From contig NC_014148.1 of NCBI RefSeq assembly GCF_000092105.1, positions 1,530,001-1,562,000 of the forward strand: a DNA stretch of 32,000 nucleotides, written 5' to 3'. Source of the stretch: Planctopirus limnophila DSM 3776 (lineage in GTDB: Bacteria; Planctomycetota; Planctomycetia; Planctomycetales; Planctomycetaceae). Positions 20,382 to 32,000 of this stretch are shown here, piece by piece. The notes under the pieces were generated by a model. The model had not been told where the DNA came from, searched no databases, and saw only the letters and a program-made list of their open reading frames with translations. The first letter of the stretch is position 1. Each line of letters opens with the position of its first letter. A program made the translations under genes and the position numbers.

Positions 20382-20978
20382 TTACGAACCATCCAGTTCG
20401 ACTGTCCAGTAGGCTTCACTCAGGAACTTTCTCCAGCTTTGAATCTTCAGATTGTGCCGGGAGTAGAGTGGCTGCCATGTGGGGCGAATTGGCATTTTCC
20501 GCAGGGGCATATGGGCTTCCTGAGGCGTGCGGTTCGCTTTTTTGTTGTTACAGGCAATACACGCCAGTACACAATTCTCCCAGGTGCTGGTTCCTCCACG
20601 CGACCGCGGTTGAACATGGTCGATCGTCAGTTCTTCTGAACCAGGTTTTGCGTCACAATACTGACAGGTATACTGGTCCCGTTTGTAGAGATTCAGCCGA
20701 CTGAATGTCACCACTTGGCGGGGAACTCGATCATACCCGGTTAATGTGATCACCTCAGGGACGCGCAGGCGGAATGTGACCGATTGTACGAAGGGCTTAT
20801 CCTGCTGAGGGATGAGTCTCGACCAGTCTTGCCAGGTATAGAGTTGATAATCAGCAGGGTCAACAATGCGCGCTCTGCCACTGGCAACTAGAGATAATGA
20901 GCGTGCGACCGAAGCGACACCGACCGGCTGCCAGTTTCGATTGAGCACCAGAGTGGGTCTTGTCAACATGGCAACCAC
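20382..20978 (-). CDS. HNH endonuclease (about 200-aa McrA-like family), paralog 2
   Basis: CQYCDAK ... LTIDHVQPRSRGGTSTWENCVLACIACNNKKANRTP. Same architecture as 5304-5921, including the N-terminal LVLNRNWQPV domain. GTG start with aaggaaaggag upstream. Confidence 0.85.
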   Translation of the reverse strand: MVAMLTRPTLVLNRNWQPVGVASVARSLSLVASGRARIVDPADYQLYTWQDWSRLIPQQDKPFVQSVTFRLRVPEVITLTGYDRVPRQVVTFSRLNLYKRDQYTCQYCDAKPGSEELTIDHVQPRSRGGTSTWENCVLACIACNNKKANRTPQEAHMPLRKMPIRPTWQPLYSRHNLKIQSWRKFLSEAYWTVELDGS

Positions 20979-21171: not shown

Positions 21172-21247
21172 TGATCAGAGTGGGAGTTGAACCCACAAAC
21201 TCACCACGTTCTCGACATGGCCGCTTTTCCAGTTTGCGTATCTGATC
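21172..21247 (-). tRNA. aberrant tRNA-Leu(GAG)-like gene lacking the long variable arm (possible pseudogene)
   Basis: Minus-strand fold: GATCAGA TA CGC AAACTGGAAAA GCG G CCATG TCGAGAA CGTGG TGAGTTT GTGGG TTCAACT CCCAC TCTGATC A. Acceptor is 7/7. The 3-bp D stem and 11-nt D loop match the neighbouring Leu(CAA). It has C33, C10 and only a 7-nt variable region. Confidence 0.4.
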
Positions 21248-21273
21248 GTCTCCGCGAATCGATTCTCGATAAT

Positions 21274-21358
21274 TGATCAAGGGGAGAGTCGAACTCCCAA
21301 GCCCGAATCGGGCACGACGTTTTGAGCGTCGCGTGTCTACCAGTTGCACCACTTGATC
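21274..21358 (-). tRNA. tRNA-Leu(CAA), class II
   Basis: GATCAAG TG GTG CAACTGGTAGA CAC G CGACG CTCAAAA CGTCG TGCCCGATTCGGGCTT GGGAG TTCGACT CTCCC CTTGATC A. All stems are perfect and the long variable arm is GCCCG/CGGGC. No CCA is encoded. Confidence 0.9.
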
Positions 21359-21473
21359 GTGTAATTCGGCTCATTGAAGGTTGGTCATCGAACTTCCTGT
21401 TCAACCCATTTCTGAAAATCGTCCGGAATGCGTGACGAGTGAGTTCTATTTCATATAGAGCCGCTTCTATGAT

Positions 21474-21555
21474 TGCGTCGGGACGGATTCGAACCATCAA
21501 TGCCCGCAGGCGGGTGCGTTACAGCCACTTGAGTACGCCCATACTCAGCCGACGC
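21474..21555 (-). tRNA. tRNA-Tyr(GTA)-like, class II, with weak anticodon stem
   Basis: GCGTCGG CT GAG TATGGGCGTA CTC A AGTGG CTGTAAC GCACC CGCCTGCGGGCATT GATGG TTCGAAT CCGTC CCGACGC A. Acceptor is 7/7 and the layout parallels bacterial tRNA-Tyr. It has C8 and only three Watson-Crick pairs in the anticodon stem (A.C and G.G at the ends). Confidence 0.6.
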
Positions 21556-21569
21556 TTGAAATCATGCAC

Positions 21570-21640
21570 TGCACTCAGCGGAATTTGAACCAGCTCTTCC
21601 GTCATGGCAAGACGGGTTATTGGTGCTACATCATGAGTGC
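21570..21640 (-). tRNA. tRNA-Gly(GCC)-like with degenerate D-arm
   Basis: GCACTCA TG ATGTAGCACCAATAAC CCGTC TTGCCAT GACGG AAGA GCTGG TTCAAAT TCCGC TGAGTGC A. The acceptor (7/7) and anticodon stem are perfect. The 16-nt D region has no pairable stem and no GG. The T stem has a C.U mismatch and G53.U61. Confidence 0.55.
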
Positions 21641-21718
21641 GTAGTTTGTGTGGATGAGGTCGATCTCTCGTAAATTCGAAGATATCTGTTCTCAGGATTC
21701 AGACCCTGAGATGCTGGA

Positions 21719-21790
21719 TGGGGTTGGAGGGATTCGAACCCCCACGGAACGAGTTAAAAGCTCGATGTGCTACCATTACACCACAACCCC
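21719..21790 (-). tRNA. tRNA-Lys(TTT)
   Basis: GGGGTTG TG GTGT AATGGTA GCAC A TCGAG CTTTTAA CTCGT TCCGT GGGGG TTCGAAT CCCTC CAACCCC A. Canonical invariants are present (U8, G10, G18G19, G53-C61, U33). The only mismatch is U.U at 27:43. Confidence 0.9.
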
Positions 21791-21894
21791 AATAGGGAGG
21801 GGCGGGGCGTTTATCGGGATTATCGATAGTCATCAGGGAGTCTTTACTATTGAATCAAGATGAATTGGTTGCGGAACAAATCTGAACGAAAGAG

Positions 21895-21966
21895 TCGGGA
21901 AGGTCAGAATCGAACTGACTTCGTCGTGTGCCCAAGACACGCGGGCGGCCGGTGCCCTTCATCCCG
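21895..21966 (-). tRNA. tRNA-Pro(TGG)-like
   Basis: CGGGATG AA GGGC ACCGGCC GCCC G CGTGT CTTGGGC ACACG ACGAA GTCAG TTCGATT CTGAC CTTCCCG A. C1-G72 is typical of bacterial tRNA-Pro, and the D, anticodon and T stems are perfect. It has A8 instead of U8 and a U.U mismatch at 6:67. Confidence 0.72.
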
Positions 21967-21976
21967 AATGATTCAT

Positions 21977-22049
21977 TAGCTCGTGTGGGATTCGAACCCA
22001 ACCTGCCCAGCGTGAAAGGCTGGTAACCTCACCAGAAGTCGAACGAGCC
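21977..22049 (-). tRNA. tRNA-Glu(TTC)
   Basis: GGCTCGT TC GACT TCTGGTGA GGTT A CCAGC CTTTCAC GCTGG GCAGG TTGGG TTCGAAT CCCAC ACGAGCT A. The anticodon loop CTTTCAC is identical to E. coli tRNA-Glu. It has G1.U72 and a 49:65 mismatch only. Confidence 0.85.
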
Positions 22050-22097
22050 AGATTGTCTTTTCGTGAATTGTGATTCAGTTCTGAACTGGAAATGAAT

Positions 22098-22169
22098 TGG
22101 GCTGGAAGGCGCTCGAATCCTTGTCTTCTGGTCTTCAGCCAGACGCTACACCATCTCAGCTACCAGCCC
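22098..22169 (-). tRNA. tRNA-Phe(GAA)-like
   Basis: GGGCTGG TA GCTG AGATGGTG TAGC G TCTGG CTGAAGA CCAGA AGAC AAGGA TTCGAGC GCCTT CCAGCCC A. Acceptor is 7/7 and the anticodon stem is perfect. The T stem closes with A53.G61 instead of the near-invariant G53-C61. Confidence 0.72.
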
Positions 22170-22630: not shown

Positions 22631-24094
22631 TTATTGACTTTCGCCACTCGTCGACTGTTTGGCTCTTTTTTCTGACTTCTCAAATTTTTGAGACGCTTTT
22701 CCCGATTGGCCAGAGCGGGGCTCGCCATCGCTTGCGACCTTGTTGCCACCACCCCAAAGTGGGGGCATGTTCTGTTGATTCCAGCGATCCCATTGCGCTT
22801 GCAGTTCGGCGACTTTTTCGGGCATGGAAGCCGCAAGATCTCTGGTTTCTCCCAGATCTTCTTTGAGGTCATAGAGCCTGGCAGCGGTCACGGGCTGTTT
22901 CCCTTTGCCTGTCAGCGTGTCAGCATTGGAATCGTAACGGACAAGTTTGTAATCGCCGGCACGGACAGCCATCTGCTCCCCAAATCGCCAGAAGAGTGCG
23001 GCGTGTGGAACTTCGCTTTGCTTTCCTTGAAGATAAGGAAGCAGATTAACGCCATCCGATTTAACATCTTTTTCTACACCTGCCACTGCGAGCGCAGTCG
23101 CTGTGAGATCCAACTGAATAACCGGTGAATCGAAGACCGCCGGTGCAATCTTGCCGGGCCATGAGACGACGAATGGAACTCTGATCCCACCTTCCAGAGT
23201 AGTACGTTTGGAGCCCCTTAAAGGGGTGTTGATTGAGCCATTAATGGTGACGCCGGGCATTGTCGGGCCGCCGTTATCACTGATGAACATGACCAGCGTT
23301 TTTTGCTTCTGCCCGGTGGTTTCCAGTTGCGTGAGGACTTTGCCAATCGCTTCATCCATCGCCAGCATCATGGCCGCATAAGTGCGGCGTTCTTGATCAG
23401 AGATGCTGGCCAACTTCGCCATGCGATCCTCCGTGGCATGCATGGGAGTATGGACGGCATTAAACGAAAGGTACAAAAACCATGGTTTGTCCCGATGTTT
23501 TTCAATAAATGAAACGGCTTCTCGACCAAAGAGATCCGTGGTGTAATCGATGGTTTTGACGGGCTCGTGACCGCGCAAAATTCCCTGGGCGTCGAAGAAG
23601 CTGTGTGCCCCTCCCAGAAAGCCGATGAATTCTTCAAACCCACGTTCTTGTGGGTGCATAGCGGGTTGCGAACCCAGATGCCACTTCCCTACCAGGCCCG
23701 TTGTATAACCGACCTGTTTCAATCGGTCGGCAATCGTCACTTCAGTTAATGGAAGACCGGTATTGGCACCTGACGGGTTGAACTCGTGTCCGAATCGCTG
23801 CTGATAACGCCCCGTGAGTAAACCGGCCCGGGTGGGTGAGCAGTAAGGGCCAGTGACATATCCGCTGGTAAATTGAACTCCCGATTTTGCCAAGGCATCG
23901 AGGTTGGGAGTCGGGATGTCTTTGCAGCCATGGAAGCCTACGTCTGCATATCCCATATCATCCCCGACGATCAGTAGGATATTGGGGCGATCTGCTGCAA
24001 TCACTGGGGTGATCACCAGAGCCAGCATGCAGAAAGCGAATGCAGAGATCTGTGAACAGCCTGCTTCCAATTGCCCGTACAACCATTGTCTCAT
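22631..24094 (-). CDS. arylsulfatase-family (formylglycine-dependent) sulfatase, secreted
   Basis: Signal-like N-terminus ending VIAADRPN. Then LLIVGDDMGYADVG metal-binding motif and the CSPTRAGLLTGR formylglycine signature. 487 aa. Confidence 0.9.
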   Translation of the reverse strand: MRQWLYGQLEAGCSQISAFAFCMLALVITPVIAADRPNILLIVGDDMGYADVGFHGCKDIPTPNLDALAKSGVQFTSGYVTGPYCSPTRAGLLTGRYQQRFGHEFNPSGANTGLPLTEVTIADRLKQVGYTTGLVGKWHLGSQPAMHPQERGFEEFIGFLGGAHSFFDAQGILRGHEPVKTIDYTTDLFGREAVSFIEKHRDKPWFLYLSFNAVHTPMHATEDRMAKLASISDQERRTYAAMMLAMDEAIGKVLTQLETTGQKQKTLVMFISDNGGPTMPGVTINGSINTPLRGSKRTTLEGGIRVPFVVSWPGKIAPAVFDSPVIQLDLTATALAVAGVEKDVKSDGVNLLPYLQGKQSEVPHAALFWRFGEQMAVRAGDYKLVRYDSNADTLTGKGKQPVTAARLYDLKEDLGETRDLAASMPEKVAELQAQWDRWNQQNMPPLWGGGNKVASDGEPRSGQSGKASQKFEKSEKRAKQSTSGESQ

Positions 24095-24100
24095 GACTCA

Positions 24101-24334
24101 TCATCTCCGGTGCTCTGAGAAATTCGCTGCTCTGTATCGCATGCAAGTTAGCAAAGAGAGCCTATCAAATTTCGACTCATGGTTGGTCATCATTCTGGAG
24201 TCACTCTTAATCGATGATATTTGGGACTCGCGAAGATATTGCAACAGTTGAAAAGATGTCAGATCAGCGGGGGACATGTCCTGTGGCTCCGTGACTGAGT
24301 CGGTTGGCGGCTTCCCGCAGAACCTGTTCTTCAC
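24101..24334 (-). pseudogene. 5' stub of a nucleotidyltransferase gene (paralog of 29053-29640), truncated after about 32 codons
   Basis: The first 32 residues, MKNRFCGKPPTDSVTEPQDMSPADLTSFQLLQ, match MKNRFCGKLPTDSVTEPLNVSPADLTPFQLLQ of the intact gene. DNA homology stops at 24240. The rest of the 77-aa ORF is unrelated and runs up to the sulfatase start. Confidence 0.6.
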
Positions 24335-24497
24335 TCCAATCGGGATGTTGTTGGCGTATGGTGCCCCGAATCATCTCCCGGGCGGTTTCCCACATACGCA
24401 ATGCCTGAGCCAACCGTTCGGCAGAGGTCTTCTGACGAAGAATCTCCACCATTTCGGGTTCCAGAATTTCAATCACTGGTTGGCGAGGGGAAGCCAT
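24240..24497 (-). repeat. 258-bp direct repeat, copy A (partner 29603-29860)
   Basis: A hand alignment to 29603-29860 shows no indels and about 30 mismatches over 258 positions (about 88% identity). It covers the whole small gene plus the NTase 5' end. Confidence 0.85.
24264..24497 (-). CDS. 77-aa hypothetical protein, orphan paralog of the R-M-embedded small gene (putative antitoxin-like partner)
   Basis: MASPRQPVIEILEPEMVEILRQKTSAERLAQALRMWETAREMIRGTIRQQHPDWSEEQVLREAANRLSHGATGHVPR matches the 29627-29860 product at 69/77 residues. The reading frame is intact. Confidence 0.6.
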   Translation of the reverse strand: MASPRQPVIEILEPEMVEILRQKTSAERLAQALRMWETAREMIRGTIRQQHPDWSEEQVLREAANRLSHGATGHVPR

Positions 24498-24648
24498 GGT
24501 TTTGAATTCGACGTGCTGACAATTCCTGCATTGAGTTCAACACAGAACAAATTCAATCTCAAGCTCTGAAGCCTGTGACGCCAACCTGGAAGCTGAGAAC
24601 ATCCAGCCAGGAACGCCTTTATCCATCGAACGGCAACCTGCGGCAGAG

Positions 24649-25038
24649 GTGTTAACGGAAGGGAGCAAAACAGTGCGTCAGGTTGCGGCTGTGTGCCAGA
24701 AGGCTGGTCAGGCAGCACGTGGCGACAGTCCGCATAACTCATTGCCAGAGAACGAATTATGCGAACCAGTGCGAGCCGTTGCTGTGAGAAACGAAACTAC
24801 GCCCATGTGGATTGGAACCACAGACCGTCGGATTAGAAATCCGATGCTTTCTGCGGAAAACCAGTTAGAAAACGAAGGTTTTTCGGAAACTACAGCATGG
24901 TTGCCGATTAATCCACAATCACTGCCAATTGACGACGCTTCACTTCTATACATACTTTCTGAATGGCCGCACCTGCCTGAGTTTCTGCGGAAATCACTGG
25001 CGCTCACAGTAGCCAGTTTCCGCCAGAATTCACAGTAA
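24649..25038 (+). CDS. hypothetical protein (weak call)
   Basis: 129-aa ORF with a GTG start and no recognisable motif. It is co-directional with the GYF_2 gene downstream and may be non-coding. Confidence 0.3.
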   Translation: MLTEGSKTVRQVAAVCQKAGQAARGDSPHNSLPENELCEPVRAVAVRNETTPMWIGTTDRRIRNPMLSAENQLENEGFSETTAWLPINPQSLPIDDASLLYILSEWPHLPEFLRKSLALTVASFRQNSQ

Positions 25039-25166
25039 TAGGCTGCTCATCAATCGATCAGCTTCACTGATCTGGTAGCTCTTAAAAGTGGTCAGGTGTT
25101 TTGGCCAAAGCGCATTCATTCGTGGTAACGCGTTTGGCAATAGATGAGAGAATCAAAGGGGCCAAA

Positions 25167-25841
25167 ATGTCGAATCAGTGGTTTGTCAAAATAGATGGAA
25201 AAGCTCAAGGGCCACTCAACGAATTGCAGATTCGTAAACTCATGAAGATGGGACGAATTGAACCTGATACTGAAGTGCGTCCAGAAAGTGGTGGTGCCTG
25301 GATGACTGCTGCTGAAGCAATCCAGATTCTGGATCAGGGAACCAATACCATTGATCCCATAGAAGCCTTGATTGACAACGTCCTGGGGACATCAACGCCA
25401 ACTCCGCCGACAACATTGTCGGATCAGGATTTCTCCCAGAACTCTCCCTCAGACTCGGAGACTCCTGCGAAGAAAGCTTCAGTCACTCCACCAATTCCAC
25501 AGGTTCCAACAGCATCTGTTCCACAACCAGTAAGAAATCAACTCCCAAAGTGGTCAGGGATTGCAAAAGATGACGTTCCCAAATACGGAGAACTGGAAAC
25601 CTACGGCTGGCTATCAGCAATCCTGGGAGTGTTGATCATGGTGAGTTCGATCATGATCAGCTTTGCAGAGGCTAACAACGAGCGTGCAACGCAAGGTTCA
25701 GTGTTTGTCATACTTCTGTTTGGGTTCCTCCAGGCTGTCGCATTCCTCACTGCTTCAGCACTGATCCGAGGATTTCGTCATGGTTTGCAGGATCTTCGCA
25801 AAATCACCATTTGCGCCGAACACACTGCCAAGCGTGCCTGA
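25167..25841 (+). CDS. GYF_2 (DUF4339) domain protein with C-terminal two-helix membrane anchor
   Basis: ATG 25167 is preceded by aaagggg. The N-terminus MSNQWFVKIDGKAQGPLNELQIRKLMKMGRIEPDTEVRPESGGAWMTAAE is typical of GYF_2. A P/T/S-rich linker follows, then two TM helices (WLSAILGVLIMVSSIMISFA, VFVILLFGFLQAVAFLTASALI). Confidence 0.72.
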   Translation: MSNQWFVKIDGKAQGPLNELQIRKLMKMGRIEPDTEVRPESGGAWMTAAEAIQILDQGTNTIDPIEALIDNVLGTSTPTPPTTLSDQDFSQNSPSDSETPAKKASVTPPIPQVPTASVPQPVRNQLPKWSGIAKDDVPKYGELETYGWLSAILGVLIMVSSIMISFAEANNERATQGSVFVILLFGFLQAVAFLTASALIRGFRHGLQDLRKITICAEHTAKRA

Positions 25842-25858
25842 AAATCCTGCCGTACATT

Positions 25859-28800
25859 TCAAAGTGTCGAATACAGGCTCAATCCTTCTCCCTGATAGCT
25901 GTCATAAACATGCTGGTAGACATTGTCACACTTCTGGCTGTAAAGCTCTGGTGTGAATGGCCTCGGAAGATCATCCAGCACTTCCTTTACAGTGGAGTAC
26001 ACGTCGGCTCGCGTTCTCTGCTTCTTTCGCCAATCCAGAACCAACTTGGCTTGCTTTAGAGATTGCAGTACCCGACGCGCCACCTGCTTTACTTGCTTCC
26101 GCTCGGCTGGTGTCAGGTCTAACTCGGGCCGCATGAGGATATCAAAAATGGCCAGTTCTTCCTCAGTCAGTTGCTCGGATACACCCCGCTTATCCTCTTC
26201 CTTTAAGTCTTTGGCAAACGCCATCAGCTTGGCAAAGAAAGCTTCAACATCCATTCCTTTGTTGTACTCTTCAATCAGCGTCTTGAACTTATCCAACAGC
26301 TCAATGCGGGATTTGTTGAGTTGAACCATTCTGGTGAGTTTCTGGCTCACCAATGCTTTCAGCTTTTCTGCTTCCGTATGTTTCCGGCCTTTACTGAAAT
26401 GAGCCTTCAACGCCTCAAAATCAACTTCGCTCAAATCAATCAATGAAGTCTCTTCTGTGGCATGGATCACATAGCCAACAGTGGAAATAGATTCATCCAG
26501 CAGTTCTCCCACTTGATCCAGCAAATCATCAATGTTGGCTTTGTCGGTCAGATTGCGGATTTTCTCTGCCAGAACCACCAGACACGTTTTGATTGCCGCA
26601 AACTCGTTGGCTCTGGGGTCAGGCAATATGGCTTTGTAAAGCTTCACCACCTGGGCCACATGAAACAAAAACTGCTTCTTCAGGTCATCATTGAGGATGA
26701 TTTTTTCAACAGCATCATCCACGGCTTCCACCACTTCGGCTTCCACCAGCAAATGAGCGGCCTGGGCCAGTTCCGCAGCTTTGTGAAAACTCTCCGGGTT
26801 GGCGTCAATCACTCTTTCCAAGCTCACGCCGCGTGAATCACAAAACGCTCTGGCTTCCGCAATGGCTTCGTGGAGAGCTTCCACCAGCATCGTCTTTTTC
26901 TCAATCGGGCATTCACCCTCCTGGGCCTGCCCTGATGCTGCTGTACCGAAAATGGCCAATGCTTTTTGCAGGTCACGAAAAACGCCCACATAATCCACAA
27001 TCAGACCGTTGGTTTTTTCTCCAAACACCCGATTGGCTCGGGCAATCGTCTGCATGAGTGTGTGATTCTTCATCGGCTTATCCAGGTAAACCGTAGAGAC
27101 ACACGGAGCATCAAAGCCCGTCAGCCACATGGCACAGACAAAAACCAGACGGAAAGGGTCTTTGGGTTCCCGGAACTTCTTTTCCAGATCCTCATTCACC
27201 ATGCGTGCCCGATGCACGGTGATATCAAAGCCTTTCTCCTGGAAGTATTGAATTTCGTTCTGCTGCTGAGAAATCACCACGGCCATATCCGTGGATTCCA
27301 TGTAAGCAATTTTCTCTTGTAATACAGGCTGACGGATTGAATCGGCCACCAGCAATTGAGACTTCAGATCTGCCAGAAACGCACCCCAGTATTTCTGGAC
27401 TTTCTCATACATCTTCACTGCGGTGAGCTTATCGACACAGATCACCATTCCCTTGCCGCCACCCTCACGTCCCAGAAAATGGGCCACAATGTCTTCCGCC
27501 ACTTTTTCCAGGCGGTCGTCTCGGGTAATCAGGTGATATTCACGGGCAAATTCCCGTTCCAGCAAATCTTCCTGCTCTTCATTGAGTTCAGCCGATTCAA
27601 TCAGAGCGTCCAGATCGTCCTGGAAGTTTTCATTGGCCAGTTGCAGTTCGGGAATCCGGTTTTCGTAAAACAACCGGACAGTGGCACCATCCTCCACGGA
27701 CTGGCGGAAGTTATAGATGGAAACATAATCCCCAAAGACTTCTTTGGTCTTCTCCTCACCAGCCATCAGCGGAGTTCCGGTGAACCCGATAAACGCCGCA
27801 TTCGGCAAGGCGTTCCGCATATTCAAAGCCAACGTGTCATATTGGGAGCGGTGAGCCTCATCAGTCATGACGATGATGTTGCTGCGGTCGGAAAGTTTCG
27901 GGTACGTCTGACCTTTCTTGGTGCCGAACTTTTGAATCAGGGTGAAGATAAACCGGTGATCTTCCTGAAGAAGTTGCTTCAGATGTTCTCCACTCTGGGC
28001 CTGACACTCTTCAGTGGCCACTCCCGTATTGCGGAAGTTGCGGTAAATCTGGCCATCCAGTTCCGTGCGGTCGGTAATGACCAGAAACGTCCAGTTGCCG
28101 GGAACTTTCCGAAGGACTTTCTGCGCAAAGAAAGCCATGGAATACGATTTGCCGCTTCCCTGAGTGTGCCAGAAAACCCCTAACCGTCCTTGATTGGATT
28201 GAATCTGGTTGAGAGCTGATGTGGCATTATTCACTCCCAGAAACTGATGATTCTTGGCAGTAATCTTATAGAGCTGACCTTTCGACTCATCAAAGAGGGT
28301 GAAGTTCTCCACGAGATCCAGAAACTTCGTTTTCTCACACGTTCCCCGAATCAATGTTTCCAGAGAGATAATCCCTTTCTCTCCTTCACTGTTGATCCTT
28401 TTCCAATCGGCAAAATGCTCCAACCCTGCCGTCAGACTGCCAATCTTGGCTTCACTCCCGTTGGAGAGGATCACCAGAGCGTTGTACCAGAAGAGCTGAG
28501 GAATGGTGGTTTTGTAGTCTTGAAGGTTGCCTGAAAAGGCCTGCTCCAGCCTGCCGTGAGTCTTCTTTAACTCAATGAAAAGTAGTGGCAGGCCATTCAC
28601 AAAGCCGATCAGGTCTGTCCGTCGTTTGTAAACTGTTCCCGAAATCCAGAACTGAGAGACCAGCAGAAAATCGTTGTTGGCGGGCTGATTCCAATCGATC
28701 ACCCGCACGGTTTCATCCACATCGTCTCCATTCTCATCGGCATAAGAGACTTTCACGCCCTCCTTGAGGAGTTTGTAAACGTCTCGGTTGGCCTGAGCAG

Positions 28801-29056
28801 GAGCGGCGGCACTGCGGTCTTTTCCCAGTTCCTCAATAGCCAGTTGAACGGCATCATCCGGCAGGCTGGGATTCAGTTTCTCTAATGCAGATTTCAGCCG
28901 GGGCCAGAGAATCACATCACTGGTGGTTTCCCGTCCCAGCGTGGCGTTGGCTCCCACTTTCTCGGCAAAGCCATTCACCGTGGCATAACCCAGTTCCTGA
29001 AACAGGGCTATCGTGGGCTGTTCAACCAGTGCATCTTCAGTGTAAGGATTGATCAT
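25859..29056 (-). CDS. hsdR: Type I restriction endonuclease subunit R
   Basis: 1065 aa. N-terminal HsdR_N-like region, helicase motif I WHTQGSGKSYS, motif II IVMTDEAHRSQ, later SF2 motifs (FTGTP, QTIARANR). The C-terminal DUF3387-like tail has LTEEELAIFDIL. The ATG overlaps the upstream stop (ATGA). Confidence 0.95.
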   Translation of the reverse strand: MINPYTEDALVEQPTIALFQELGYATVNGFAEKVGANATLGRETTSDVILWPRLKSALEKLNPSLPDDAVQLAIEELGKDRSAAAPAQANRDVYKLLKEGVKVSYADENGDDVDETVRVIDWNQPANNDFLLVSQFWISGTVYKRRTDLIGFVNGLPLLFIELKKTHGRLEQAFSGNLQDYKTTIPQLFWYNALVILSNGSEAKIGSLTAGLEHFADWKRINSEGEKGIISLETLIRGTCEKTKFLDLVENFTLFDESKGQLYKITAKNHQFLGVNNATSALNQIQSNQGRLGVFWHTQGSGKSYSMAFFAQKVLRKVPGNWTFLVITDRTELDGQIYRNFRNTGVATEECQAQSGEHLKQLLQEDHRFIFTLIQKFGTKKGQTYPKLSDRSNIIVMTDEAHRSQYDTLALNMRNALPNAAFIGFTGTPLMAGEEKTKEVFGDYVSIYNFRQSVEDGATVRLFYENRIPELQLANENFQDDLDALIESAELNEEQEDLLEREFAREYHLITRDDRLEKVAEDIVAHFLGREGGGKGMVICVDKLTAVKMYEKVQKYWGAFLADLKSQLLVADSIRQPVLQEKIAYMESTDMAVVISQQQNEIQYFQEKGFDITVHRARMVNEDLEKKFREPKDPFRLVFVCAMWLTGFDAPCVSTVYLDKPMKNHTLMQTIARANRVFGEKTNGLIVDYVGVFRDLQKALAIFGTAASGQAQEGECPIEKKTMLVEALHEAIAEARAFCDSRGVSLERVIDANPESFHKAAELAQAAHLLVEAEVVEAVDDAVEKIILNDDLKKQFLFHVAQVVKLYKAILPDPRANEFAAIKTCLVVLAEKIRNLTDKANIDDLLDQVGELLDESISTVGYVIHATEETSLIDLSEVDFEALKAHFSKGRKHTEAEKLKALVSQKLTRMVQLNKSRIELLDKFKTLIEEYNKGMDVEAFFAKLMAFAKDLKEEDKRGVSEQLTEEELAIFDILMRPELDLTPAERKQVKQVARRVLQSLKQAKLVLDWRKKQRTRADVYSTVKEVLDDLPRPFTPELYSQKCDNVYQHVYDSYQGEGLSLYSTL

Positions 29057-29640
29057 GGGGCTGCCTCATGGATTCTTTGAAGCACCAGTTTCCATTCTGT
29101 GGTCACTCCCAGAGTTTCAGCCCATTGTGTGAGATAATCCCGGTCAATGGCGTCTTTCTGGATCAGCAGGATGCTGGCAATATCCCGCAGATGTTTTTCG
29201 GAACCCCCCTCCTGGTAGTACCGCAACTTCATCAGGATGATATTTTCCGGAGAACCGAACCAGGCATCATAAAAGCCGGGATTGGACAGCCTTTGTCCCA
29301 GGCTGATGTCCAACTGGCTGAAAGGCGTCTCTTTCCGCTGGATAATATCCAGTTTGAGGCCTGACGGAACATGAATGATGTTGAACTGGTGGCGGGTACG
29401 AATGGCTTCTGCCACAGCCGTGGTCGAAAGATAGAAATCTGGAGACGGAAATTCCTGATCCAGTTCAGCAATGTGGCTTTCTTGCAGATCCACCAGAAAA
29501 TCAATGTCGTTCGTAAAGCGGGCCTCACTGTAAGCCATGCTGGCCATGGAACCGACGACCCGGTACGGCACTCCCAGCCGTTCAAAGCAGTTGGCAGTCT
29601 TCTGCAACAGTTGAAAAGGTGTCAGGTCAGCGGGGGACAC
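29053..29640 (-). CDS. Pol-beta-fold nucleotidyltransferase (NTase) embedded in the Type I R-M operon
   Basis: VVGSMASMAYSEARFTNDIDFLV fits hG[GS]-x13-DxD, with a third acidic residue in GLKLDII. The C-terminal helical region is ENIILMKLRYYQEGGSEKHLRDIASILL. I prefer GTG 29640 as the start because the paralogous stub has ATG at the same codon. The longest ORF starts at 29697. The stop overlaps the hsdR ATG. Confidence 0.72.
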   Translation of the reverse strand: MSPADLTPFQLLQKTANCFERLGVPYRVVGSMASMAYSEARFTNDIDFLVDLQESHIAELDQEFPSPDFYLSTTAVAEAIRTRHQFNIIHVPSGLKLDIIQRKETPFSQLDISLGQRLSNPGFYDAWFGSPENIILMKLRYYQEGGSEKHLRDIASILLIQKDAIDRDYLTQWAETLGVTTEWKLVLQRIHEAAP

Positions 29641-29860
29641 GTTCAGTGGCTCCGTGACTGAGTCGGTTGGCAGCTTCCCGCAGAACCTGTTCTTCACTCC
29701 AATCCGGATGTTGCTGACGTATCGTCCCCCGGATCATTTCCCGGGCGGTTTCCCACATCCGAAATGCCTGAGTCAACCGTTCGGCGGGAGTCTTCTGACG
29801 AAGAATCTCCACCATCACAGGTTCCAGAATTTCAATAACGGGTTGGCGTGGTGGCTGCAT
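29603..29860 (-). repeat. 258-bp direct repeat, copy B (partner 24240-24497)
   Basis: See copy A. It spans the small gene and the first codons of the NTase gene. Confidence 0.85.
29627..29860 (-). CDS. 77-aa hypothetical protein upstream of the NTase (putative antitoxin-like or regulatory partner)
   Basis: ATG 29860 lies 2 nt after the hsdS TAG stop and gives MQPPRQPVIEILEP..., colinear with the 24264-24497 paralog. The tracked ORF start at 29890 would overlap hsdS. The 3' end overlaps the NTase start by 14 nt. Confidence 0.65.
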   Translation of the reverse strand: MQPPRQPVIEILEPVMVEILRQKTPAERLTQAFRMWETAREMIRGTIRQQHPDWSEEQVLREAANRLSHGATERVPR

Positions 29861-29862
29861 AC

Positions 29863-31725
29863 CTACGATCCTGCCTGCAACGTGAACCACTTCTGACGCA
29901 CCATCTTTGAAATCGTGTCGTCCACATTCTCAACAGAGAAATTGTTTTTGTCTCGCTTCCCGGGCCAGTTGTCGATTCCAGTTTGGATATTCTGCCGCGT
30001 GATGGGTTGGCCAGCGTCGTGAAGATCACAGACGACCTTAAAAATGGTCATCCATTTCCCCAGGCCACTCTTCCCGAATTTGGAGAGATCCTGCACGAAC
30101 TCCGTCACAAGGGCTGCTTTCTCTCCCAGAAGAGATTTTGCGTATTCAACACCTTTTGTGAATTTCCGACCGGGAAGCAGAATTTTCCCCTGATTATCAA
30201 ATCGCAACCAATCAAAGCCAGCGGCGGCAAAGACCGCTTTATGGCGAAGTTCCTGTGACCAGGGGCCAGCCTTCTGGGCGACAAATTTTGAATTGATGGC
30301 ATGCCTGCGGAGATGTTTCAGGCCGAACATGTGCTTCTGAATGACAAACTCGTTGTTTGGTCTATCTGGTGCCAGATGAAGAAGCTCTTGCAGTAACAAG
30401 CACAGAATCGCCGCATCGTCTTTGTAAGGTGTACCTGTTTCGGCAGTCGGAGATGAAACAATTTGCGGCTTTGGCGGTTGGATAACTTTTTCTACTTCCG
30501 GCTGTTGAAAGGTCGGTTCATCAAAATCGATTTCCAGAGACTCAACATCCAGTTCACCGCTGATGAGTTTGGGAAGTAAGAGGTCACGGGTTTTGCGAAG
30601 GATTTTGTTTTTTCTAAGGATATTTTCAATGTGCTTTACTACGGGGGTTGTAAGAACGTCAAACTTCTGAATTAAAAATGGTTGCGGAAGAATAATTTCA
30701 AGATCCGCTATCAATTTTGTTGTCAGACTTCCACGAGAGCTACCGTCAGAGATCTGCCGGAACTGGTCATACCTTTGCACTAAATCAAAAAATAAAAAAC
30801 TATCAGTAGTTTGCTTACCATCAGCCGTTACAGCAATTGTTGACTGATTGATGTAGCAATCTAGGCAAAGCATCGACGTTTGGCCACGAGTCTTGCCTTG
30901 GCCCGCACTTGCAATAACAGTGCAGCCAGATCGTGCAAAACGGGTACTTGAATTAGTCACGCCCTCCTGTGTGATTTTCTTTTCAGTCTCTGTAATAAAG
31001 GTGTTTCCGGTTTCGCCGGATGATAGCCACGGAATATCACCATCCCAGTATTCATTGACATTAGTTCTTGGTGTCCCTCCGCTAGTAATTCTTTCGCAAA
31101 TTGAATCCAATCGTTTAACCTGCCAACCCTCAGGGATTTTGCCGAGTGGGGAATCGACGAGCAGGGTGTTTTCGTGGCCTGGGAAGCGGAAGTGGACGAA
31201 CCATTCCCGGTAAATGGCCTGGGCCATCTCTTCCAGAATGGCAATTCGCCGGGTGTTGTTCTCAATCAGATCATCATACGCCGAAAGAATCCCCGCAATT
31301 TTGCGTTGGACTGGCTCGGATGGAAATGTCAACTGTAAACCGTTCAAAATTGTTAAAGTCAAGAACTTGGTTGCGGCACCTGTGGATATACTTTGCAAAT
31401 GTTCAAGCAAGGGCCACATAGAGTAGTAAAGGAAACGCGTGTTGAGTCGCGTGCAATCTTGTGGCGTAACAACATACGTGCGTTGATACGCGTCAAATCG
31501 TCCGTGAAAATACTTTAGTGGATATATGCCGTTGGCATTGTTTCCGGCGAGTAACACACATTCTGTATCGAAGGCAAAAGTGTTTGTGCGAAGCGTCTCT
31601 TGCGAGCATGTAAAAAAGGGATATGCACCGTTTGATACAGCAGCATTTGAATTCAGCTTGCCCGTCTTGAAAGTCACTAGATTGCTAAGGGCGTCTGTCG
31701 TCCAGCCATTTGGAGGCATATTCAT
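29863..31725 (-). CDS. hsdS: Type I R-M specificity subunit with an extra C-terminal domain of about 220 aa
   Basis: Residues 1-400 form two target-recognition domains separated by the conserved helix [36 protein letters not shown], ending with the second helix [18 protein letters not shown]. Residues 401-620 are additional (see findings). The ATG overlaps the hsdM stop (ATGA). Confidence 0.9.
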
Positions 31726-32000
31726 AATGCTGCCTCCAACAATTTGACGACGTTAACGGCAATTCGTTCTTCCAACTCACGGGCTTCACTGTTGAGAACT
31801 TCCAGTTCTTCACTCAGTTCTTCCAGCCGTTCGGCAAACACAAAATCGTCCGGGGCTTTGTCGGCAACTCCCACATACCGGCCTGGGTTCAAACTCCAGC
31901 CCTGGGCTTCAATTTCCTGGAGTGTGGCGATTTTGCAGAGTCCAGCCACATCCGCATACTTCAGCTTCGGGAAGGTGGCTTTCAGGTCTGGTTCGACTCC
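31722..32000 (-). CDS. hsdM: Type I R-M DNA methyltransferase subunit, 3' end only (continues beyond the window)
   Basis: The C-terminal sequence ...[24 protein letters not shown]...[16 protein letters not shown] is typical of an HsdM C-terminus. The frame stays open to position 32000. Confidence 0.85.

Follow-up and report, generated by a model that had tools for sequence, protein, structure and literature searches.

A MenAT1-Type Toxin-Antitoxin Pair Between hsdS and hsdR of a Type I Restriction-Modification Operon in Planctopirus limnophila

Gene Content of the Locus

We analyzed a stretch of 32,000 nucleotides (nt) from Planctopirus limnophila DSM 3776 (contig NC_014148.1, positions 1,530,001 to 1,562,000), hereafter called the window, in which positions are counted from the first letter of the stretch. 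On its minus strand lies a tightly packed Type I restriction-modification (RM) operon with the gene order hsdM-hsdS-(77-amino-acid gene)-(195-amino-acid nucleotidyltransferase gene)-hsdR. The two genes between hsdS and hsdR are foreign to the RM system and are encoded on the same strand as the three hsd genes, of which hsdM is only partly contained in the window. This two-gene cassette, encoding a small protein of 77 amino acids (aa) and a nucleotidyltransferase (NTase) of 195 aa, is the subject of the present work. The operon contains the following features.

31722..32000 (>32000), minus strand: 3′ end of hsdM, last 92 codons, with the frame open up to the window edge
29863..31725, minus strand: hsdS, 620 aa, with two target recognition domains and a C-terminal extension (Methylase_S, Specificity_I)
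29627..29860, minus strand: menA1-like antitoxin gene copy A, 77 aa, Plim_1219 (PF18993)
29053..29640, minus strand: menT1-like nucleotidyltransferase toxin gene copy A, 195 aa from GTG 29640 (AlphaFold2 (AF2) model with Foldseek, family profile)
25859..29056, minus strand: hsdR, restriction subunit, 1065 aa (Pfam, TIGR00348, PADLOC REase_I)

The identity of the RM genes was straightforward. HsdR carries the full Type I set of Pfam domains (HSDR_N, SWI2_SNF2, ResIII, T1R_D3-like and T1RH-like_C) and matches TIGR00348 (E = 2.4e-150) and PADLOC REase_I (E = 1e-177). HsdS matches Pfam Methylase_S (E = 2.2e-27) and, over residues 13–394 only, PADLOC Specificity_I (E = 4e-77). The C-terminal stretch of HsdM is 72% identical to the sequence located directly upstream of hsdS in the RM operon of another locus (L034, see below). 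The GC content of the cassette is 52.8%, which resembles that of the window core (52.2%) more than that of hsdS (46.6%) or hsdR (49.8%).

An earlier note, made from the sequence alone, had described this arrangement as a cassette placed where prrC sits in its own RM operon, with tight junctions throughout. Reading of the sequence confirmed the position and every one of the junctions. The last 4 nt of hsdM (31722–31725) are also the first 4 nt of hsdS, and the TAG stop of hsdS (29865–29863) is separated by a 2-nt gap from the antitoxin ATG at 29860. The TGA of the antitoxin gene (29629–29627) falls inside the NTase open reading frame (ORF), which gives an overlap of 14 nt if translation of the NTase starts at GTG 29640, and the TGA of the NTase gene shares the sequence ATGA (29056–29053) with the ATG of hsdR. 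The NTase ORF stays open further back, to GTG 29697. GTG 29640 is the likely toxin start, because the homologues are about 195 aa long and most of the aligned ones begin at the same MSPADL-type N-terminus, and because the paralogous copy in the window (see below) has an ATG at exactly that codon. Since these junctions leave no room between the genes for a separate promoter, the cassette is predicted to be co-transcribed and translationally coupled with the RM genes. A promoter and terminator scan of positions 23900–32000 returned signals at background level only, such a scan being uninformative for a planctomycete.

Identity of the Cassette Proteins

The 77-aa protein, which is 100% identical to P. 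limnophila Plim_1219, matched the Pfam family PF18993, "Rv0078B-related antitoxin" (E = 2.1e-19; score 69.7 bits, gathering cut-off 27.1), and the same family was found in all of its homologues (56/56). Rv0078B is MenA1, the antitoxin of the MenAT1 system of Mycobacterium tuberculosis (PMC10435456). For the NTase, 2058 homologues were retrieved at E ≤ 1e-3, and 303 genome loci encode relatives of it. These numbers, together with a PF18993 score above the gathering cut-off, indicate that both ORFs are real genes and did not arise by chance.

The AF2 model of the NTase, built on a family alignment of 23 homologues, reached a mean predicted local distance difference test score (pLDDT) of 93.2. 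It consists of a beta-sheet lobe followed by a four-helix bundle that makes up the C-terminal half, in agreement with the helical C-terminal half described previously. When this model was compared with the Protein Data Bank (PDB) using Foldseek, the top five matches were all MenT1/Rv0078A (8an5, 8an4, 8rr5), with E-values from 1.7e-8 to 1.6e-6, template modelling (TM) scores of about 0.63 and about 200 aligned columns. Other NTases came next, and then MenT3/TglT at E about 3e-3 and above. The profile of the 23 homologues also retrieved 8an4 among the PDB sequences (E = 5.8e-6). Single-sequence searches of the PDB gave a marginal match for the toxin (8an4, E = 0.2) and no match for the antitoxin.

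The Pol-beta NTase signature GS-x13-DID announced in the earlier note is present (G30, S31, D45, I, D47 in the 195-aa numbering), and D98, the third acidic residue, is conserved without exception in the aligned family. HMMER alignments placed the RFTNDID motif of the toxin (T43/D45/D47) on the RFTRDVD motif of MenT1 (T39/D41/D43). The conserved catalytic residues of MenT1 are given as T39, D41, K137 and D152, with D43 assisting D41 in supporting the divalent metal ions by which the nucleotide triphosphate is bound (PMC10435456). In the C-terminal lobe, K138 and D153 of the window toxin are invariant in the family, and their 15-residue spacing equals that of MenT1 K137 and D152. The profile of the C-terminal half matched nothing in the PDB and gave no residue-level alignment of this lobe to MenT1; from the spacing and the fold, we infer that K138/D153 correspond to K137/D152.

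Judged by sequence and modelled fold, the cassette is a MenA1/MenT1-type toxin-antitoxin (TA) module, that is, a member of the Rv0078B/Rv0078A family. The pair can thus be placed in a described family, something that the earlier note had not managed from the sequence alone: the antitoxin falls in PF18993 and the solved structures nearest to the toxin are those of MenT1. The more general idea of an NTase forming a TA-type module with a small partner was sound, and the mention of AbiEii/MenT pointed to the right neighbourhood.

Other identities were considered and rejected. An MNT/HEPN pair, in which a minimal NTase is the antitoxin of a HEPN RNase toxin, does not fit, as the partner has no HEPN match in Pfam, PADLOC or NCBIfam and the NTase has a MenT1-like fold of the toxin type. 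An AbiE system does not fit either: the match of the toxin to AbiEii/DUF1814 (PF08843; E = 8e-4, 19.9 bits) lies under the cut-off of 22.5, the antitoxin is a 77-aa PF18993 protein, and no PADLOC AbiE model matched at E ≤ 1. PADLOC and NCBIfam returned no significant family for either cassette protein, the best PADLOC E-value for the toxin being 0.005, and weak matches to PDC-S09 (E = 0.005 and 0.039) were disregarded.

Genomic Contexts of the Pair

The 303 loci were found in a scan of one genome per species, and the best 80 of them were examined; the observations on genomic context refer to these 80. Most belong to Planctomycetota, and some to Acidobacteriota/Aminicenantes and Phycisphaerae. 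In every one of the 77 loci where this could be tested, the gene immediately upstream of the toxin encodes an antitoxin homologue; the remaining 3 of the 80 are cut by a contig end. The pair is a conserved, self-contained unit. Its flanking genes are heterogeneous and many of them are housekeeping genes (ribosomal protein S15, a DNA polymerase III delta-type subunit, sulfatases, methyltransferases). No neighbour family recurred among the flanks, and PADLOC models matched neighbouring genes as singletons only. The phage genome collection contained no relative of the toxin, and only distant relatives were found on plasmids.

With HsdR, HsdS and HsdM of the window as tblastn queries, members of this RM family were detected near the pair in only three loci (L034, L025 and L026). 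In L034 the RM operon is intact and uninterrupted and starts about 5 kb downstream of the pair. The pair abuts hsdR in only 2 of the 77 other loci, namely L025 and L026, two metagenome-assembled genomes of Pirellulaceae whose toxins are about 49% identical to that of the window. In both (L025, 2729–2977 and 3564–3788; L026, 9614–10948), the pair is flanked by hsdS/hsdR debris and both cassette ORFs are intact. The menT stop and the hsdR start of L025 overlap in the sequence TTGA. The same locus contains, upstream, a second antitoxin-like ORF, which is another case of an orphan-antitoxin duplication.

These contexts bear on the functional proposal of the earlier note, an effector guarded by the RM system. 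The anticodon nuclease PrrC acts on tRNA and contains an ABC ATPase domain; it lacks a dedicated antitoxin and is silenced by the RM system (Payne et al. preprint). By analogy, the NTase would be held latent by HsdMSR, as PrrC is by EcoprrI, and would fire when a phage anti-restriction protein disables the complex. The position of the cassette, the translational coupling of every junction of the operon, the same stop/start overlap with hsdR next to the divergent toxin of L025, and an unusual C-terminal domain of HsdS (see below) are all consistent with such a model. However, PrrC has no antitoxin, whereas a dedicated one accompanies the toxin in all testable loci, and the folds are unrelated, the window protein being an NTase. 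Neither an ABC ATPase nor a HEPN family was found in the cassette proteins with Pfam, PADLOC or NCBIfam. Moreover, where the pair abuts hsdR outside the window, the RM genes are pseudogenised and the pair is intact, so its latency cannot depend on the RM system. The persistence of the pair beyond the RM system is the reverse of what one would expect from an RM-dependent latent effector. The earlier note had named the lack of a recurrent linkage to RM or defence loci as a finding that would refute its hypothesis, and the survey essentially showed such a lack. Nothing in the data calls for a physical link between the pair and the RM complex. Considering also that the pair is present in P. hydrillae in a place without RM genes (next section), we regard control of the toxin by the RM complex as very unlikely.

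A Second Antitoxin Copy and the Locus of P. hydrillae

The window contains a second, truncated copy of the module, located 5.4 kb downstream of the cassette and described by the following features.

24264..24497, minus strand: orphan menA1-like antitoxin copy B, 77 aa, Plim_1214 (PF18993, E = 1.3e-21)
24101..24277, minus strand: copy-B toxin stump, an ATG and 13 codons homologous to menT (MSPADLTSFQLLQ), then unrelated sequence
24240-24488 versus 29603-29851: direct repeat of 249 nt, 90% identical, corresponding to the duplicated antitoxin and the toxin 5′ end

The two antitoxins share 70 of their 77 aa. A tblastn search with toxin residues 1–13 matched only positions 24277–24239 at the stump; the homology to the toxin stops after ...CAACTGTTGCA and the NTase domain is deleted. 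Compared with P. hydrillae, the copy-B locus lacks about 720 bp. For the orphan antitoxin, the ratio of nonsynonymous to synonymous substitution rates (dN/dS) was 0.13 when compared with copy A and 0.11 when compared with P. hydrillae, values that indicate purifying selection in the course of its evolution. Copy B may thus still work, possibly on toxin A.

The sister species P. hydrillae encodes a toxin 96% identical to that of the window. Its pair is intact, stands alone, with hsdR and hsdS both absent from the 10 kb flanking it on each side, and sits at the position of copy B, as its flanks are syntenic with window positions 22631–24094 (a sulfatase gene) and 24498–24848. The stretch of the window from ~24848 to at least 32000, which comprises the entire RM operon as well as a GYF-domain gene, is missing from the P. 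hydrillae locus and behaves, on this comparison, as a strain-specific island. The GYF-domain gene itself (25101–25841, plus strand) encodes a 246-aa GYF_2-domain protein and lies convergent to hsdR, immediately after it.

Alignment of window positions 29053–29860 with the P. hydrillae locus (L001, 9781–10588) revealed a mosaic, with 80% identity over the first 60 nt, ~98% over nt 61–780 and 61% over the last 28 nt. For comparison, the syntenic flanks of the two species are 86–92% identical. Such a pattern indicates a recent tract of recombination or gene conversion between the RM-embedded and the stand-alone copies, in either direction.

The decay of copy B raises the question of whether the cassette itself is an inert hitch-hiker, inserted into the junction through recombination and since inactivated as a TA pair. 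The neighbouring copy has already lost its toxin, TA loci often decay, and the cassette lacks its own promoter region. Nevertheless, both cassette ORFs are intact and have kept all of the residues that are invariant in the family, the junctions have retained their translational coupling instead of decaying, and the dN/dS values of copy A against P. hydrillae (0.16 for the toxin and 0.21 for the antitoxin) speak against an inert remnant. We consider this explanation highly improbable.

Two further features were noted on the minus strand of this part of the window. Six tRNA genes (Leu-GAG, Leu-CAA, Lys-UUU, Pro-UGG, Glu-UUC and Phe-GAA; 21172–22169) form a cluster 2–3 kb from the orphan-antitoxin locus, and beside this cluster lies a gene for a 198-aa HNH endonuclease (20382–20978; PF01844, E = 1.5e-15).

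The hsdS–hsdR Junction as a Cargo Site

The variability of the insertion site was evaluated in 80 metagenomic operons (L081–L160) gathered with the HsdR N-terminus, all from the same HsdR clade as the window operon and 57–72% identical. Of these, 61 allowed both the hsdR start and the conserved hsdS end to be placed. The two genes abut (15–58 nt) in 19 of these 61 operons, and in the other 42 (69%) they are separated by an interval of 0.27–4 kb containing mostly same-strand genes. The products of this cargo include DUF3800, a dual-specificity phosphatase domain, DUF429, Fic/DOC, DUF2283, GmrSD, KwaB (Kiwa), Schlafen AlbA_2, HEPN with Polbeta NTase, Abi_C and AAA_13-type ATPases. None of the surveyed same-clade operons carried a menAT pair. 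The hsdS–hsdR junction is thus a general cargo hotspot, and its variability is here quantified in one HsdR clade.

This observation agrees with previous reports. Embedded genes are frequent in Type I RM systems, PrrC being almost exclusively RM-embedded (Payne et al., bioRxiv 10.1101/2024.01.29.577857), a Phd-Doc pair lies inside the pneumococcal tvr Type I locus (PMC6265443), and in enteropathogenic Escherichia coli (EPEC) a TA system is embedded at the same site as the cassette, in an island active against phages (PMC12255303). The pair of the window adds a predicted tRNA-modifying NTase TA pair to the modules known to be embedded between hsdS and hsdR.

Around a dozen cargo ORFs in this survey either run into the estimated hsdR start or stop a few nucleotides from it. 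Since such overlaps are common among unrelated cargo genes, the ATGA of the window and the TTGA of L025 are generic to the site and do not testify to a special partnership with hsdR, which weighs against the RM-guarded model. For the same reason, the overlap in L025 was rejected as proof of a common origin of the composite operons. More generally, tight translational coupling at this junction gives no evidence of partnership and calls for caution when function is deduced from "guilt by embedding".

The C-Terminal Tail of HsdS

HsdS of the window is about 200 aa longer than usual, owing to a C-terminal extension of about 190 aa (about 29866–30440) that matches no Pfam family. An exhaustive search found this tail in only 39 cluster representatives, and a word-indexed search gave none. 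Its carriers are mostly HsdS fusions of 580–650 aa, with some stand-alone proteins of 220–310 aa and one helix-turn-helix fusion. The AF2 model of the tail (pLDDT 89.5) had a single fold match, chains B/D of 7YK3 (E = 2e-4, TM 0.58/0.67), the M. tuberculosis DarTG complex. These chains probably correspond to the C-terminal domain of DarG, and residues 410–496 of HsdS also gave a weak NCBIfam match to the post-macrodomain part of DarG (E = 0.15). This domain of DarG is reported to mimic single-stranded DNA (Deep et al., 2023, as cited in PMC12170906). A Panacea/DUF4065-like tail, suggested by a "GPW" motif, was rejected, as it had no Pfam support and the fold search gave the DarTG-complex chains instead.

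A bolder scenario would be one in which MenT is functionally wired to the RM system as an NTase-based analogue of PrrC and is released when a phage disables the RM complex, with the DarTG-complex-like tail possibly helping and the orphan antitoxin setting the threshold. However, the tail also occurs in a cargo-free operon with hsdR directly downstream (L161) and is therefore not specific to MenT. This scenario appears very improbable to us, and the cargo-free operon also weighs against the RM-guarded model in its simple form.

Proposed Role of the Module

Our analyses argue with good confidence for an autonomous MenAT1-type module, carried as a passenger in the variable hsdS–hsdR junction of a strain-specific island and not dependent on the RM system. 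The mechanism that we propose follows the M. tuberculosis homologues. MenT1 adds nucleotides, mainly cytidines, to the 3′ acceptor ends of tRNAs (PMC10435456; PMC11375011), MenA1 binds asymmetrically across two MenT1 protomers and induces auto-phosphorylation (PMC10435456; PMC11375011), and T39 is the residue that becomes auto-phosphorylated on MenA1 binding (PMC11375011). By homology, the 195-aa NTase would add nucleotides to the 3′ acceptor ends of tRNAs, the extended tRNAs could presumably no longer be charged, and translation would stop. The 77-aa antitoxin would bind the toxin directly, a single antitoxin spanning two toxins, and thereby neutralise it; it would also induce auto-phosphorylation of the active-site threonine, conserved as T43. 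Expression of the module would be coupled to that of the RM genes at the levels of transcription and translation. Most likely, the module is selfish: it would be kept by its own addiction and would be co-transferred with the island, which it would stabilise. It may in addition bring an abortive-infection benefit when host expression collapses.

This last point leads to a plausible alternative, in which the module is a dedicated abortive-infection cargo, retained in the RM operon as a second layer of phage defence acting at the level of the population. A phage that escapes restriction would shut off host expression, the labile antitoxin would decay and MenT would block translation. This reading shares part of its mechanism with the passenger-module reading, from which it differs on why the module is present, and the two are non-exclusive. 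Published work classes the related DUF1814 NTase system AbiE with abortive infection or phage resistance, the EPEC TA system occupies the same site in a phage-active island (PMC12255303), the other cargo at the junction is enriched in known defence families, and "guilt by embedding" has been validated for other systems (Payne et al. preprint). Nevertheless, the toxin family is not associated with defence islands, as shown by its many housekeeping neighbours and by PADLOC matches limited to singletons. In addition, no PADLOC match was significant for the toxin and none was obtained for the antitoxin, relatives are absent from the phage genomes and only distant on plasmids, and we met no defence phenotype for MenAT1 in the portions of the MenAT1 literature consulted. 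A dedicated defence role is therefore possible, and we hold it to be rather doubtful.

Several observations weigh against an autonomous MenAT1-type passenger. The sequence similarity of the toxin to MenT1 is limited to the N-terminal lobe, and identity is only 14–19% over the structural alignments. The expression of the cassette is tied to the RM operon, as there is no promoter space, and this fits functional wiring equally well. Two other loci with divergent toxins (about 49% identical) share the menT-stop/hsdR-start overlap, so the embedding may be older, or more favoured, than a single chance event would imply. Finally, an addiction role and a defence role are not separable in silico.

With these points in mind, the pair of P. 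limnophila belongs to a known TA family, and the kind of site that it occupies is known as well. The arrangement is genuine, if rather ordinary, and our findings leave the current understanding of TA or RM biology unchanged.

Comparison With Known Systems

PrrC and the window toxin have in common their position between hsdS and hsdR and a tRNA target, which is only predicted for the latter. They differ in that the window protein is an NTase with a dedicated antitoxin, and in that RM embedding is rare in its family.

AbiE (AbiEi/AbiEii) and MenAT3/MenAT4 belong to the same NTase toxin superfamily, as reflected in the weak PF08843 match and in the distant MenT3 fold match (E about 3e-3). However, the window toxin is much shorter than theirs (195 aa versus about 290), and its antitoxin is neither of the AbiEi-type winged-helix kind nor, compared with MenAT3, of the MenA3 type.

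A parallel in terms of location is DarTG of EPEC, which is also a two-gene TA module; it occupies the hsdS-cargo-hsdR junction of a Type I RM operon, with which it is co-transcribed. DarT ADP-ribosylates DNA, whereas the window toxin is a predicted tRNA nucleotidyltransferase. The EPEC island also has a dedicated upstream repressor, RptR, while the start of the P. limnophila operon lies outside the window.

In terms of protein family, the nearest relative is MenAT1 of M. tuberculosis. In both systems a PF18993 antitoxin is encoded upstream of the toxin, the two genes overlapping by 14 nt in the window. The toxin is an NTase of ~195 aa with an aligned T-x-D-x-D motif, and its beta-sheet lobe and four-helix bundle are also the architecture described for MenT1 (PMC10435456), which provides its best structural matches (8AN4, 8AN5, 8RR5). 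The M. tuberculosis system has a known repressor in the neighbouring gene Rv0078 (PMC10435456), whereas the pair described here is found in a planctomycete, inside a Type I RM operon, lacks a separate regulator and promoter region, and has an extra orphan antitoxin copy nearby. The MenAT1 paper counted 21 menA1 genes (PMC10435456). With more than 2000 toxin homologues and 303 genome loci found here, the MenAT1 family is widened from a small mycobacterial set to a large clade, mainly in Planctomycetota and Acidobacteriota.

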